DNA of 22,717 bases from an uncultured Deferribacteres bacterium (GTDB lineage Bacteria; Zhuqueibacterota; Zhuqueibacteria; Zhuqueibacterales; Geothermadaptataceae): NCBI GenBank assembly GCA_964014485.1, contig CAXHAT010000135.1:1-22717 (forward strand), given 5' to 3'. Positions within the stretch are counted from its first letter, which is position 1. Each line of letters begins with the position of its first letter. The position numbers and the translations under genes were made by a program. Shown in pieces: positions 4,489 to 21,513 of the stretch. The notes below the pieces were generated by a model, which had not been told where the DNA came from, did not search any database, and was given only the letters and a program-made list of their open reading frames with translations.

Positions 4489-4725
4489 TCAAAGCCTGTC
4501 AAAATTCTCCGGCTCAACATCCGGGACGGCGTTCATGACTTTCTCAAAATCTTCACGCCTGCCTTTCGCCGCTTCCGCTTTTAGATAATCCTCGGTCAGC
4601 AATGCGGACATTTTTTCCGCCGCGGCGGCCACCAGAAACTGATTGATTGAAATGCCTTCGGATTTCGCCAAATCCTTGATTTTATTGTACAGCGACACAG
4701 GCAATTTTAATGGGAAGTTTATCAT
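4489..4725 (-). CDS. Ribbon-helix-helix (CopG/HicB-type) antitoxin-like protein, 78 aa
   Basis: MINFPLKLPVSLYNKIKDLAKSEGISINQFLVAAAAEK; ATG overlaps the upstream stop (ATGA). Confidence 0.8.
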   Translation of the reverse strand: MINFPLKLPVSLYNKIKDLAKSEGISINQFLVAAAAEKMSALLTEDYLKAEAAKGRREDFEKVMNAVPDVEPENFDRL

Positions 4726-5084
4726 GCGGCAACACGCTTGGGCAGAGGTGGAATTTGGGGCGAAAATGAAAGACCAACCGCCAGAAAATCGCTCACCGGA
4801 GGCGATGTAATCACTGAAATGACCGCTTGCCACAAGCCGTCCGGCAGGTTCCGTAATTCATGGATCGGAATATTCAACGGCGCGTCGCGATGGAATTCCC
4901 GCATTCGGGAAAAATTGATCAAAGTCAGCCCAACCGCCCGCGGCTCCCGATCCGGCGGACTCCCCGCATCCAACCGAAGTAAAAGATTGTCCGCCAACTC
5001 TACGCCCGTGACATGATCGCTCTTGCCAAAGGAGACGTAAAGCACATCGCCTTCCTGATCGTAGTTGAGTTTTGTATCAGTCAT
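4722..5084 (-). CDS. DUF2283-like protein
   Basis: KLNYDQEGDVLYVSF...GVELADNLLLRLD...AVGLTLINFS pattern; ATG at 5084 (TTG at 5096 alternative). Confidence 0.7.
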   Translation of the reverse strand: MTDTKLNYDQEGDVLYVSFGKSDHVTGVELADNLLLRLDAGSPPDREPRAVGLTLINFSRMREFHRDAPLNIPIHELRNLPDGLWQAVISVITSPPVSDFLAVGLSFSPQIPPLPKRVAA

Positions 5085-5252
5085 TTCTTCGTCCAAAACT
5101 TACTGTTTGGCATTTTGTTTCACTGCATACTATTTTTATAAAAATTACGCTCTCGCTGTCAAAAGCACAACTACAAAATAGCCTTGCGTGCTCTTGAGCG
5201 TATTCCACTCCCTAAAATAACCAAATCATTCAAATCACCAAATAGCCGAGCG

Positions 5253-5363
5253 TGATTGTCCTCAGCGAACTGCTCGAACAGAGATGCTGAAGTCGAAGTC
5301 GAAGCGGTAGTTGTCGCAACTGCCGAAGTAGAAACTGGCAACCCACGCCGAAGAAGCAGTTTT
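5253..5363 (-). repeat. DGR variable repeat VR-B
   Basis: Ungapped 111-nt alignment to TR 8116-8226: 18 mismatches at TR adenines, 2 at non-A positions (both T>C). Confidence 0.93.
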
Positions 5364-6494
5364 CTTGTCCGCCGTCCAGATCCAGCGCTGGGTCGCGTCA
5401 AAAACTTCGTCGATAAACAAGCCGTTTTTGCCCTTCTTCGGCGCCATCAAACTCATGCCTTCCTCCAGCGTCGGCAAGCGCCAGTCGTTAAAGCCGCCGA
5501 ATTTCTCAGCATTCAACGAGTCGATATAATCTTGCGCGCTTTTGAACTTCATGTAATCTTTCGAGCCGCTTTGCTGCCAAGTCAGGCCGGTCGCGTGGTC
5601 AAGTATCGAGACCGCGCCGTTTTTGTCGATTTGCTCGAATTGATTCTGAACACCTTCTCCTGAAGCGTTTTTCCTTTTGTCGTAAAATCCTTTTTCTTGC
5701 AACATTTCCTTAACCGCTTTCTCGGACAACGATTCCGCCGGTTTGGAGCGCAACGATACGGGCGGGGATTTCGAGACTGAGGCTTTGGCTGGCGCGTTTC
5801 TTCGCGTTTCGTTTTGCCGGAGACGGGCTTCCAATTCGGTCAGTTGCTTTTCCCGACGCAAAAGTTTGTCGTTCAGCGCTTCTACTTCGCGCACGGCTTT
5901 TTCCGCCCGTGCCGTTTCGCTTTGCCAGCGCTTTTTCAAGGCCTCGTGTTCAGCACGCAAAACGGCCTTGGCAAGGTCGGCGTTTTTTTGCCTGAGTTCG
6001 GCTTGCAGTTTCGCCAATTCTTCCGCCGGAACCGTCTCGCCGCGCAGCCTGGGTTTGAAATCCTGCACTGGATTGCTCGCATCCCGCGACCAGTTCGGGA
6101 AATCGTGCAAGGATTCGGCGATCTCCTTTTCGAGCGCTTTCAGGCCGTCGATGGATTGTTTGTAAATAATGCAGCGGTAATTGCGGATGTCAAACGGCAA
6201 GTCGTTGGCGCTTTGGGCGCACATGATGGTTTTGTTGCCGATGGCGTGCGCCACGCCCATTTCGTAGAACACGTTGGGATTCATGTCGCTGAGCTCGGCC
6301 ACAACCGCATCGGCGCGGAACAGGTGCTGGATGATTTTTTTGTTAATGTTGAAATGCCCCTTCAGTTCATCCACGCGCACCGCCCGAAATCCGGCGGCCT
6401 CGCACGCAGGCGCGACGGCGTACTTGTATACCTCCAATCGCTCCTCGCTGAACGGCATAATCACAAAGCAGATTTTTTGTTTTTCCTGGGTCAT
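5262..6494 (-). CDS. DGR target B: N-terminal nucleoside deoxyribosyltransferase/TIR-like Rossmannoid domain, coiled coil, C-terminal DUF1566 (Lcl/CLec-fold) domain
   Basis: CFVIMPF...ADAVVAELSDMNPNVFYEMGVAHA...LPFDI; heptad-rich aa ~155-232; DHATGLTWQQ, DWRLPTLEE, WIWTAD, VRAVR. Confidence 0.88.
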   Translation of the reverse strand: MTQEKQKICFVIMPFSEERLEVYKYAVAPACEAAGFRAVRVDELKGHFNINKKIIQHLFRADAVVAELSDMNPNVFYEMGVAHAIGNKTIMCAQSANDLPFDIRNYRCIIYKQSIDGLKALEKEIAESLHDFPNWSRDASNPVQDFKPRLRGETVPAEELAKLQAELRQKNADLAKAVLRAEHEALKKRWQSETARAEKAVREVEALNDKLLRREKQLTELEARLRQNETRRNAPAKASVSKSPPVSLRSKPAESLSEKAVKEMLQEKGFYDKRKNASGEGVQNQFEQIDKNGAVSILDHATGLTWQQSGSKDYMKFKSAQDYIDSLNAEKFGGFNDWRLPTLEEGMSLMAPKKGKNGLFIDEVFDATQRWIWTADKKTASSAWVASFYFGSCDNYRFDFDFSISVRAVR

Positions 6495-6614: not shown

Positions 6615-8144
6615 TCAAAGCGTTCTACCGTTAAAGCTCTCTTCGTAGCCGTCTATGATCATGTACGGCAAGCGCTCTTTAGCGTACAAGCACTCTCTCC
6701 CCGTTTGTCGAACCGCGAGTACAGGTATTTTGGCGTGCTCGAGTTTTTTCACCATACGCGGCAGCAATTTGGCTGGAAACCCGCACGCATGGCGATAGCC
6801 CCGCCAACCTTTTATAACGTTCACGTCCAGCGCCGGCGCCAATTCCACGGCTTGCTTACCCAAAACTTCATAGTAGTTTCCGATTTGAATCAAACGGGCG
6901 TAGTTGCCATATTTCCATCCCAGCCAGCTTACTTGCCGTTTGAGCGTCGGCTGTTTGCGAAGACCGGCGTCGAATCGTTTCACTTTTTTGTTCGAAATCG
7001 AGAAATAGCGTTGCAGAAAAGCGTGTTTTTGCCAGAGCTTTTGGAGAAGATTGTCGCAATCAGCGTGTTGAAAATGCCCGAGATAAGCATTGATCGCCGC
7101 CGTCAGCGCATCGATTTCCTCGGAATCGAAACGGTACATCGTAAAGCTCCGCCGCAGTTGCACATTCCTGACGCGAAAAATCTTCAGCTTCGTCTTCAGA
7201 TTCCCAACCGTGCGCCGCCGCACCAGGCAATAATTCGGGCGAACGACAAATCCGCCAAAATCGACCCCGCCGGTAACAAGGCCGAGCTTTGTCGCTTTCG
7301 GGTTCAATTTCAATCGGAGTTTTTCAGCGAGAAACCGCCTGATTTCTTCCTGCCACGTTCTCAATTTCACAGCGTCACAATGCAGAAGAACCAGGTCATC
7401 GACATAGCGCAGATAAAAGCGGCATTTAAGATCGTGTTTCACGAACTGATCCAGCGCGTTGAGATAAACATTGGCGAAAAACTGGCTGGTGAGGTTGCCG
7501 ATGGGCAAGCCGCAATCGGGTCTGGCGTGAAACAGTGATTTATGCGGCGGCAAACGAAAACGCAAATTTTCCCGATCCTTCATTTCGTAATCCTGCGTGC
7601 AGTCGTGGAAAATGACGGTTTCGAGCAGCCATCGCAGATCGGGACGGTGATGCTTTTGCGCCAGCATTTCGAACAGGAGGCGCCGGTCGATGGTCATGAA
7701 GAAGTTGCGGATATCGAGTTTGAGGTAAAACGCGCGCTTCCGGCCGCCGTGCGTGACGCGTCGCTGCATTTTTTGTAATTGATCGACCGCCAAATGCGCG
7801 CCTTTTTCCGGGCGGCAGGCAAAGGAATGGAAGATAAAAGTCTTTTCCCAAATCGGAGAGATGTGATTATAGATCAGATGATGCACCACGCGATCTCTGA
7901 AATCCGCCGCGAAAATTTCACGGCATTTGGGCTTTTCCGTGTAGAAACAAATAGAAGCGGACGGCCGGTAACGGCGCTCCAGCAACTCCTCGGTGAGATC
8001 GACCAGGTTTTGCTCCAGATCGACCTCGAACGCCAGTGCGCTCAGCTTGTTGCGTTTGTTCGCGCGGCAATCGCGCCAGGCGCGGTACACTTGCTGAAAA
8101 TTGAAGAAGGGGTGATGATTTTCCTCAGCGAACTGCTCGAACAT
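6615..8144 (-). CDS. DGR reverse transcriptase with C-terminal MutS domain I-like extension (~509 aa)
   Basis: PKCREIFAADFRDRVVHH, KLDIRNFF, GLPIGNLTSQFFAN (DGR-type signature), YLRYVDD, GVDFGGF; likely ATG at 8144 inside the TR 3' end. Confidence 0.95.
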   Translation of the reverse strand: MFEQFAEENHHPFFNFQQVYRAWRDCRANKRNKLSALAFEVDLEQNLVDLTEELLERRYRPSASICFYTEKPKCREIFAADFRDRVVHHLIYNHISPIWEKTFIFHSFACRPEKGAHLAVDQLQKMQRRVTHGGRKRAFYLKLDIRNFFMTIDRRLLFEMLAQKHHRPDLRWLLETVIFHDCTQDYEMKDRENLRFRLPPHKSLFHARPDCGLPIGNLTSQFFANVYLNALDQFVKHDLKCRFYLRYVDDLVLLHCDAVKLRTWQEEIRRFLAEKLRLKLNPKATKLGLVTGGVDFGGFVVRPNYCLVRRRTVGNLKTKLKIFRVRNVQLRRSFTMYRFDSEEIDALTAAINAYLGHFQHADCDNLLQKLWQKHAFLQRYFSISNKKVKRFDAGLRKQPTLKRQVSWLGWKYGNYARLIQIGNYYEVLGKQAVELAPALDVNVIKGWRGYRHACGFPAKLLPRMVKKLEHAKIPVLAVRQTGRECLYAKERLPYMIIDGYEESFNGRTL

Positions 8145-8226
8145 AGTTGTTGTTGTTGTTGTCGATGTGGTTGTTGTTGCAATTGCCATTGTTGAAATTG
8201 ACAACCCACGCCGAAGAAGCAGTTTT
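8116..8226 (-). ncRNA. DGR template repeat (TR)
   Basis: Reads AAA ACT GCT TCT TCG GCG TGG GTT GTC AAT TTC AAC AAT GGC AAT TGC AAC AAC AAC CAC ATC GAC (AAC)5 TAT GTT CGA GCA GTT CGC TGA GGA AAA TCA; 12 AAY codons; lies between avd and RT. Confidence 0.95.
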
Positions 8227-8789: not shown

Positions 8790-8832
8790 AATTTAAATGA
8801 CCAAATAATTCAAATCGCCAAATAACCGAGCG

Positions 8833-8946
8833 TGATTGTCCTCAGCGAACTGCTCGAACAAAGACGTTGAAGACGTTGCTGACGACGTGGAAGTAGCTGC
8901 AAAAGCCACTGCTGAAAAGGACAACCCACGCCGAAGAAGCAGAGTA
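8833..8946 (-). repeat. DGR variable repeat VR-A
   Basis: Aligns to TR with one extra NNC codon; 22-24 mismatches depending on gap placement, all at TR adenines. Confidence 0.93.
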
Positions 8947-21420: not shown

Positions 21421-21482
21421 AGGGGGTGGAATAATCAGCGCTCTGCTTTTGGAGAACCGCACTGCATTGTACTCCACCCCCT
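21421..21482. promoter_or_regulatory. Stem-loop downstream of target C
   Basis: agggggtggaata ... tactccaccccct, 12 of 13 pairs. Confidence 0.6.
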
Positions 21483-21513
21483 AAAGAACCAAATAAATCA
21501 AATTGCCAAATGA

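Follow-up and report, generated by a model that had tools for sequence, protein, structure and literature searches.

Diversification of conflict-system sensors by diversity-generating retroelements (DGRs) has been proposed for targets that carry TIR, CHAT, NACHT and nSTAND domains (PMC10907252). Combinations of a "Toll-like receptor" with an NTPase among DGR targets (PMC5758913) and DGR-linked ternary systems (PMC7159879) have also been described, and in cyanobacteria, DGR variable proteins that bear kinase, TIR-like, GAF and CHAT domains were read as a means of tuning regulatory pathways (PMC7517822). According to PMC5758913, DGR targets of the DUF1566 type (category d) are lipoproteins of the cell surface or have extensions of the adhesion type. 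On the effector side, DrHyd domains have been presented as NADase effectors on a par with TIR (PMC9503650), and the retron effectors RcaT and Ec86, which are nucleoside deoxyribosyltransferase (NDT)-like, are dimers with a catalytic Glu whose toxicity needs assembly beyond the dimer, NAD+ hydrolysis being reported for Eco1 (10.64898/2026.10.13.758329; 10.1101/2023.08.16.553469). Here, we describe a gene of an uncultured Deferribacteres bacterium, gene 5262..6494 of the window, i.e., of the whole 22,717-nucleotide (nt) stretch of DNA that was analysed (contig CAXHAT010000135.1 of assembly GCA_964014485.1). The gene lies in a DGR cassette and encodes a protein of 410 amino acids (aa), in which an NDT-like domain is joined to a lectin-fold head.

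On balance, we lean towards the reading that this gene encodes a cytoplasmic homodimeric sensor-effector diversified by the adjacent DGR. Like the Thiohalocapsa PB-PSB1 and clade 5 DGR sensors, the protein has a C-terminal lectin-fold variable region (VR) fused to a conflict-system domain, and this genome resembles Thiohalocapsa PB-PSB1 in having several DGRs with many targets in differing cell compartments, and the published set in bringing together TIR, CHAT, NACHT and nSTAND partners. In contrast to those sensors, the present target has no NTPase, vWA or adapter domain, the NDT-like domain being joined to the head by a coiled coil, and its lectin is of the DUF1566/Lcl_C type, whereas theirs are of the FGE type (PMC10907252).

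The head matches Pfam PF07603 (Lcl_C, DUF1566) at aa 297–410 (E 2e-19, 70.4 bits) and, in Foldseek, the C-terminal domain of Legionella Lcl (8q4e). Its variable region, VR-B, aligns with the template repeat (TR) of the cassette, TR1, over 105 nt without a gap. Of the 19 mismatches, 17 fall at adenines of TR1 (binomial P ~1e-6, Fisher P 6e-8) and two elsewhere; 14 codons differ, all within codons 386–405, and the last 26 nt, at the junction, are identical. Over 70 homologues, the AAY-coded positions have an entropy of 3.15 bits, as against 1.11 for the rest of the VR and 1.15 for the NDT-like domain, which is the most conserved part of the protein, and the scaffold residues W384, F388, G391, C393, V406 and R407 of the head are conserved. 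The same placement of the VR in a DUF1566/Lcl_C lectin fold is seen in Legionella LdtA and the DUF1566-type DGR targets (PMC5758913), which are surface or adhesion proteins, whereas hydropathy points to a cytoplasmic location for the 410-aa protein, in which the lectin fold is joined to an enzyme-like domain. These sequence comparisons indicate that gene 5262..6494 is a genuine target of the adjacent DGR, and bear out an earlier interpretation made from the letters and open reading frames of this DNA (hereafter, the sequence-only reading), which had assigned VR-B to a DUF1566 domain.

The two mismatches outside the TR adenines would also fit a frozen former target, in which the architecture is real and diversification has ended on this copy of the gene. 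The same applies to a population check on the contigs of three public runs from one study: VR-B is identical in contigs of the runs X1 (5251–5472) and X2 (5191–5341), at a depth of 3–6, and variants that would reveal ongoing diversification were not found in the contigs of these two runs. Among the homologous loci described below, L029 and L044 are further points for such an end. This explanation nevertheless seems improbable, since the RT, Avd and TR1 of the cassette are all intact, the junction is preserved to the last 26 nt, and the variable region of the 598-aa co-target, VR-A, departs from TR1 by 18 mismatches at adenines and none elsewhere, with one 3-nt insertion; the read evidence, from contigs of such depth and from one study, is itself weak and would fit either case. 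An apparent joint from 8400 to 5215 in X1 was considered as a rearrangement and rejected, as a 90% repeat downstream of both VRs explains it.

AlphaFold2, given an alignment of 70 homologues with the same architecture, modelled the full-length protein with a mean predicted local distance difference test score (pLDDT) of 90.7, as a five-stranded beta-alpha domain (aa 7–135) followed by a long helix, a linker and a lectin fold (Table 1). The motifs named in the sequence-only reading are present in the first of these parts, at aa 9–15 (CFVIMPF), 72–80 (NPNVFYEMG) and 99–103 (LPFDI), and the coiled coil of about 75 aa that it had proposed corresponds to the single helix of 73 residues, which is predicted to form a parallel dimer. 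No hydrophobic segment was found in the 410-aa protein: by the Kyte-Doolittle scale, a crude measure, the maximum 19-residue mean is 0.79, as compared with 2.13 at the N-terminal anchor (aa 30–48) of the co-target. Because the hydropathy maximum is this low, the lack of a signal peptide, also noted previously, and of a membrane anchor is indicated, and the protein would be cytoplasmic. The NCBIfam scan yielded merely weak coiled-coil or adhesin noise.

Table 1. Features of the window, with the target gene and its parts first
Feature	Position	Strand	Basis or remark
DGR target gene, 410 aa	5262..6494	-	stop codon 5262-5264; open reading frame call, Pfam, AlphaFold2
NDT/DNPH1-like (DrHyd superfamily) domain, aa 5-150	6045..6482	-	fold, profile and conservation
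Single long helix, aa 157-229 (73 residues)	5808..6026	-	AlphaFold2 pLDDT >90; dimer model
Disordered linker, aa 230-257	5724..5807	-	pLDDT 39 for aa 231-240; aa 231-241 <50
Lcl_C/DUF1566 lectin-fold ligand-binding domain (putative), aa 258-410	5265..5723	-	Pfam PF07603; Foldseek
VR-B, 105 nt matching TR1	5259..5363	-	variable codons 386-405 at 5280-5339
Template repeat TR1	8122..8226	-	36 A in 105 nt; 12 AAY codons in VR frame
DGR reverse transcriptase (RT)	6615..8144	-	RVT_1 E 2.7e-16; MutS_I E 1.1e-3 at C-terminus
Avd-type accessory protein, 128 aa	8403..8789	-	bAvd E 1.5e-9; 23S_rRNA_IVP E 5.5e-8
Co-target A, 598 aa	8842..10638	-	N-terminal membrane anchor aa 30-48; C-terminal Lcl_C; VR-A 8839-8942
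ATTTGR array, three tandem ~10-nt units	5215..5245	-	downstream of VR-B and GGACAATC junction; candidate target-side recognition element
TIR_2 + Lcl_C gene, 312 aa	21514..22452	-	TIR_2 E 3e-29; Lcl_C E 8e-20; TR2 target

For the N-terminal domain, a separate model of aa 1–150, built from an alignment of 53 diverse family members, reached a pLDDT of 95.3 and a predicted template modelling score (pTM) of 0.89. In an exhaustive structural search, the CMP N-glycosidase MilB (Z 13.8, root-mean-square deviation 2.8, 133 residues aligned) and the TIR domain of SfSTING (Z 13.8, 3.5, 125 aligned) came joint first, followed by TIRAP (Z 12.8), NDTs (12.4), RCL/DNPH1 (12.1) and the SARM1 TIR domain (11.3), and the best Foldseek matches were a Chroococcidiopsis NDT (E 9e-6) and the SPARTA TIR-APAZ protein (E 7e-5). 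The modelled fold thus places the domain in the TIR-DrHyd-SLOG class, in agreement with the sequence-only reading. That reading had called the domain "NDT/TIR-like", which holds for the fold class; within the class, the sequence points to the NDT/DNPH1 (DrHyd) branch. In the sequence searches, the sole match among solved structures was DNPH1/Rcl (phmmer E 0.09, family profile E 3e-4), the Atlas neighbours of the domain carry NDT family labels, and none of the Pfam TIR models PF13676, PF01582, PF08937 and PF10137 matched the 410-aa protein at E <= 0.1. The PADLOC model PDLC00733, "Effector, TIR", matches aa 23–115 at E 1e-11.

The alignment with DNPH1/Rcl pairs VFYEMG with VGYELG and sets Glu78 (codon 6261–6263), a putative catalytic residue in the helix after strand 3, on the nucleophile Glu of DNPH1/Rcl. 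Glu78 is invariant in 70/70 homologues, as are, among others, Met13, Pro14, Arg40, Asn74, Tyr77, Gly80, His83, Lys88, Asp102 and the tail NPVQ (aa 141–144), which extends as the conserved NPVQDFKP (aa 141–148). The domain thus has in common with the NDTs, DNPH1/Rcl and MilB (PF05014) the fold (Z 12–13.8) and a YE(L/M)G motif with the nucleophile Glu after strand 3. It differs from this family in a score under the Pfam cut-off, in Ile54 at the position of DNPH1 Asp80 and in the extra NPVQDFKP tail; moreover, the NDTs and DNPH1 are stand-alone metabolic enzymes, whereas here the domain is embedded in a receptor-like protein. With the TIR effectors (SPARTA TIR-APAZ, TIR-STING, SARM1 and ThsB), it shares the Rossmannoid class (Z 11–13.8, Foldseek E 7e-5); four sibling lectin genes bear a true TIR_2 domain in the same position, in contrast to the 410-aa protein.

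These differences bear on a further possibility, that the N-terminal domain is non-catalytic and serves as a nucleotide-binding sensor or an assembly scaffold, like some SLOG and TIR domains, with separate effectors being recruited. The TIR-DrHyd-SLOG class does include non-catalytic sensors (PMC9503650), and the PF05014 (Nuc_deoxyrib_tr) match at aa 44–98 (E 7e-4) has 20.1 bits against a cut-off of 28.8. In addition, the pairwise alignment sets Asp80 of DNPH1, which assists catalysis, opposite the invariant Ile54, and therefore the active site would be no plain copy of that of NDT/DNPH1. We consider this possibility improbable, because Glu78 as well as Arg40, Asn74, Tyr77, His83, Lys88 and Asp102 do not vary among the homologues, Glu78 is conserved at >=90% in the wider 53-sequence family alignment, and no part of the protein is more conserved than this domain. 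For a second acidic catalytic residue, a role held by Asp80 in DNPH1 and by E85 in RcaT, the 70-homologue alignment contains the conserved candidates Asp42 and Asp102.

For the full-length protein, two modelled copies gave an ipSAE of 0.50 (runs 0.53, 0.48 and 0.50) as against 0.00 for the best of three controls. Among proteins of solved structure, this mark of 0.50 was attained in 20 of 30 that form pairs and in 1 of 23 that are single chains. Between runs, >=78% of the contacts agree, with a partner pLDDT of >=80. The helices touch in register (183:183, 190:190, 204:204 and 207:207), and the coiled coil is therefore parallel in the model. The N-terminal domains touch through aa 49–60, aa 68–85 (the Glu78 helix, with 84:84), aa 100–105 and aa 142–148, whereas no contacts past aa 228 were reported in the dimer model. 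These results predict a constitutive parallel homodimer in which the NDT-like domains are packed through the Glu78 helix; the trait of the NDT family, a dimer with active sites at the interface, is seen here in prediction only. The sequence-only reading had suggested that ligand binding oligomerises and thereby activates the protein. A dimer is indeed predicted, but as a constitutive state, and hence the activating step would be assembly beyond the dimer and not dimerisation.

The closest tested precedents for such a step are, by analogy, the NDT-like effectors of type II retrons (RcaT of Retron-Sen2 and Ec86/Eco1), in which an NDT-like domain is combined with a DNA-binding domain and whose genes, like the present one, lie beside a reverse transcriptase. 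RcaT dimerises via its NDT-like domain and has a catalytic triad of F28, E85 and E107 (10.64898/2026.10.13.758329); in the 410-aa protein, the pattern alone would set Phe15 at the first and Glu78 at the third of these positions. In RcaT and Ec86, the dimer forms via the helix next to the catalytic Glu, the pairing that is predicted for the 410-aa protein, and toxicity or defence requires the assembly state to change, which we propose for the 410-aa protein by analogy. The sensor differs, being multicopy single-stranded DNA (msDNA) plus the DNA-binding domain in the retrons and a hypervariable lectin head here, and so does the role of the RT, which makes msDNA in the retrons, whereas here it rewrites the sensor gene. 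A profile search of the PDB showed no sequence similarity of the N-terminal domain to the retron effectors.

The family of the N-terminal domain is very large: at E <= 1e-3 it has 23,209 representatives, and 9,185 are left at E <= 1e-10. For its partners, Pfam was run on 82 of the best 150 representatives, namely the longer ones without prior annotation. Lectin partners in this set were Lcl_C (6) and FGE-sulfatase (3), and TIR_2 (2) and SIR2_2 (4) were also found. Receiver domains occurred in 11, several of which also carry EAD7/EAD8, trypsin or CHAT, and the other partners were STAND-type NTPases, NA-iREase1 with WD40, TPR-S, Roc-COR, Hsp70 and Cpn60 fragments, and GAF/PAS. PF05014 itself was reported in 43/82 and reached its curated cut-off in 22/82. 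The domain is also found in 110 plasmid records, annotated as hypothetical, TRAFs-binding or TPR proteins. This spectrum of partners is that of a conflict-system effector module, as described for DrHyd and TIR (PMC7159879, PMC9503650).

Two further proteins with the same NDT-like domain were observed on other contigs of the same assembly. One, of 255 aa (contig C6, 16256–17023, minus strand), has a C-terminal tail resembling a winged helix and hence the layout of the retron effectors RcaT and Ec86, yet no RT lies nearby; the other, of 329 aa (contig C324, 931–1920, minus strand), has the domain at its C-terminus.

The architecture of the 410-aa protein recurs in other genomes. Among 88 near-length relatives of aa 1–140, Lcl_C is present in 64 and FGE-sulfatase, the second lectin fold employed by DGRs, in 6, which indicates, at the sequence level, that the combination of NDT-like and Lcl_C domains is a conserved family. 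Relatives were located at 25 loci of species-representative genomes, most of which are metagenome-assembled genomes labelled KSB1, Calditrichota/Caldithrix, Cytophagia, Deferribacteres or Deltaproteobacteria. In four of these loci (L025, L029, L034 and L036), a full RT and Avd lie immediately upstream in the gene order of the window, and in L044 there is an RT fragment only. TRs were sought within the Avd-RT interval, and in three of the four RT-adjacent loci the VR departs from the local TR almost only at adenines, with 18 mismatches at A and 2 elsewhere in L025, 12 and 2 in L034, and 17 and 11 in L036, where 10 of the 11 lie in the 5' flank. For L029, the mismatches are 16 at A and 14 elsewhere, together with a 6-nt indel, and this VR looks decayed.

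The cassette of the window is laid out on the minus strand in the order co-target A, Avd-like gene, TR1, RT and the NDT-like target. The RT probably starts at the ATG at 8144, which falls within the 3' end of TR1, although the longest open reading frame reaches 8363; both matches of the Avd-type protein, bAvd and 23S_rRNA_IVP, are slightly below their curated cut-offs. The regions after both VRs (5227–5261 and 8807–8841) repeat the first RT codons, as the likely RT start lies within the 3' end of TR1 (8122–8144), and small open reading frames there read ..LFEQFAEDNH.. A MutS_I-like C-terminal region was present in 6/6 RTs examined, i.e., that of the window, that at C74 30033–31697 and those of L025, L029, L034 and L036 (E 1e-3 to 7e-9, 5/6 reaching or exceeding the Pfam cut-off). 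Three RTs with such a region had been noted by Wu et al. (PMC5758913), and from these sequences it looks typical of this lineage.

In L024, L034 and L044, too, the NDT-like target has an upstream lectin target with a membrane anchor next to it, and L025 has a clear homologue of the N-terminal region of the 598-aa co-target (E 2.5e-83). The presence of a membrane-anchored co-target and a soluble target suggests, from sequence, an outside/inside pair on one template. The neighbours of the cassette are the housekeeping genes PdxA, a methyltransferase and FtsE/FtsX, and a DUF2283/HicB-like pair. The pair consists of two overlapping small open reading frames directly downstream of gene 5262..6494 (4489–5096, minus strand), with matches to DUF2283 (E 3e-5) and, weakly, HicB/CopG-like proteins (E 0.014–0.018), and may be of the toxin-antitoxin type.

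The assembly as a whole (8.4 Mb in 465 contigs, the window being contig C135) contains 13 Lcl_C genes and two DGR RT/Avd pairs, one in the window and one on contig C74. The N-terminal domain is TIR_2 in four of the 13 genes, nSTAND in two, NNH1-NACHT-LRR, CHAT and the present NDT-like domain in one each, and no known domain in four. Six genes match a TR and seven match neither. TR1 accounts for gene 5262..6494 and the co-target, and TR2 (C74, 31523–31631) for two genes on C74, an nSTAND gene on C30 and the TIR_2-Lcl_C gene of the window, which has a true TIR domain where gene 5262..6494 has the NDT-like domain. This last gene shows 13 mismatches to TR2 at A and 1 elsewhere, without gaps; it is a remote DGR target, because its 3' end matches a TR on another contig, and it was rejected as a target of TR1, to which it has 8 non-A mismatches. 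The seven unmatched genes lie on contigs C34, C5, C322, C45, C130 and C128, three of them (two on C34 and one on C5) with a junction and a weakened repeat array like those of TR2 targets; the explanation would be either a third TR that the 465-contig assembly lacks or a frozen state of these targets.

The joining of sibling lectin genes to TIR, NACHT, nSTAND and CHAT fits a conflict-system setting, and it is here that a regulatory reading has to be weighed, in which the 410-aa protein is a signalling receptor whose head reads self, kin or environmental ligands and whose NDT-like domain tunes a nucleotide signal without killing. The domain types of the siblings (TIR_2, NACHT, nSTAND and CHAT) and those of the relatives of the N-terminal domain (SIR2_2, EAD7/EAD8, trypsin and TPR-S) are typical of conflict systems (PMC7159879), and together with the match to the PADLOC effector model they make a purely regulatory role unlikely. 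In its favour are the interpretation of the cyanobacterial proteins mentioned above (PMC7517822), the relatives of the domain that are joined to receiver, GAF and PAS signalling domains, and the flanks of the cassette, in which no defence-system partner genes were found within the window.

The DNA downstream of the VRs has a further common feature. Past the VR/GGACAATC junction lies an array of 2–6 tandem units of ~10 nt with the core ATTTGR, of which the window holds, besides the array after VR-B, further examples at 8795–8840 and about 21470–21510. The array follows 6/6 TR-matched targets of the genome, with 3–4 copies each, and 10 of the 11 homologues examined in other species (L024, L028, L029, L032–L034, L036, L038, L042 and L046), including those without an RT within 7 kb. 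It is absent after the TRs and after four lectin genes without a matching TR. In the Bordetella phage DGR, a hairpin or cruciform lies downstream of the VR. For the present VRs, DNA folds of three downstream regions were no better than shuffles (z 0.04, -0.43 and 1.18), so that no such hairpin was found in them. From its distribution, the ATTTGR array may serve this DGR lineage in recognising its targets.

For the sensor-effector that we favour, the following course of events may be envisaged. Two flexibly tethered hypervariable heads would bind, in the cytoplasm, a ligand from an invader or of other foreign origin, and a repetitive or multivalent ligand would gather dimers into higher-order assemblies or relieve an inhibited state. 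Such gathering or release would be more likely than a signal passed along the stalk, given the disordered linker and the lack of predicted head contacts. Assembly or release would then switch on N-glycosidic cleavage of NAD+ or another nucleotide, leading to growth arrest or abortive infection. The protein would be one of a genome-wide set of DGR-addressed lectin sensors with interchangeable TIR, NACHT, nSTAND and CHAT modules.

Several observations weigh against this interpretation. The tied Z scores leave the fold alone without power to choose between the NDT and the TIR branch, and the Pfam NDT score and the Ile at the Asp80 position set the domain apart from plain members of the NDT/DNPH1 family. 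Part of the dimer score may stem from likeness to NDT dimers, because these are common among solved structures. An RT match was found in the flank examined in only 5/25 homologous loci, several contigs being short. To these are added the two non-adenine mismatches and the identical VR-B sequences, and the flanks without defence genes.

A DGR-diversified conflict sensor is not in itself a new idea, as it has already been published. The sequence-only reading had mentioned such proposals for other phyla and left the novelty of this fusion to a search; DGR sensors with TIR, CHAT and STAND domains are indeed described (PMC10907252, PMC7517822, PMC5758913), whereas an NDT/DrHyd-type domain on a DGR target is undescribed in the literature searched, the supplements of DGR surveys, which may list the architecture, lying outside that search. 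The word "deoxyribosyl" is absent from the main text of PMC10907252, the main text of Roux et al. 2021 contains none of TIR, deoxyribosyl, kinase and DUF1566, and a literature search combining DGR with deoxyribosyltransferase returned retron effectors only. Within the same bounds, the NTPase-free layout of two modules joined by a coiled coil and the apparent placement of DUF1566-type heads inside the cell would likewise be new.

The diversification of intracellular immune sensors by DGRs is so far a proposal, and the examples in the literature, being large multi-domain STAND or vWA/MoxR systems, are hard to reconstitute. In the 410-aa protein, which is soluble, a single sensor is combined with a single stalk and a single enzyme-like domain, and the accompanying RT/Avd/TR cassette is compact; the immune-sensor question is therefore directly testable. 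The locus adds the NDT/DrHyd branch to the effectors linked with DGR heads, places inside the cell, by hydropathy, a DUF1566-type head previously found on surface proteins, and indicates, in the ATTTGR array, a possible new target-recognition element. More speculatively, and as a doubtful though conceivable extension, the protein may be a minimal antibody-like immune receptor, with two diversified heads, a coiled-coil stalk and an NDT-like NADase or nucleotidase driven directly without an NTPase switch, in a system in which one TR serves a membrane-anchored and a cytoplasmic target of the same cassette, for surveillance outside as well as inside the cell, and the lineage-specific ATTTGR array marks genes genome-wide for rewriting. 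If this were true, two DGRs would sustain, in bacteria of the KSB1/Calditrichota type, a scattered repertoire of sensors linked to TIR, STAND and NDT domains.

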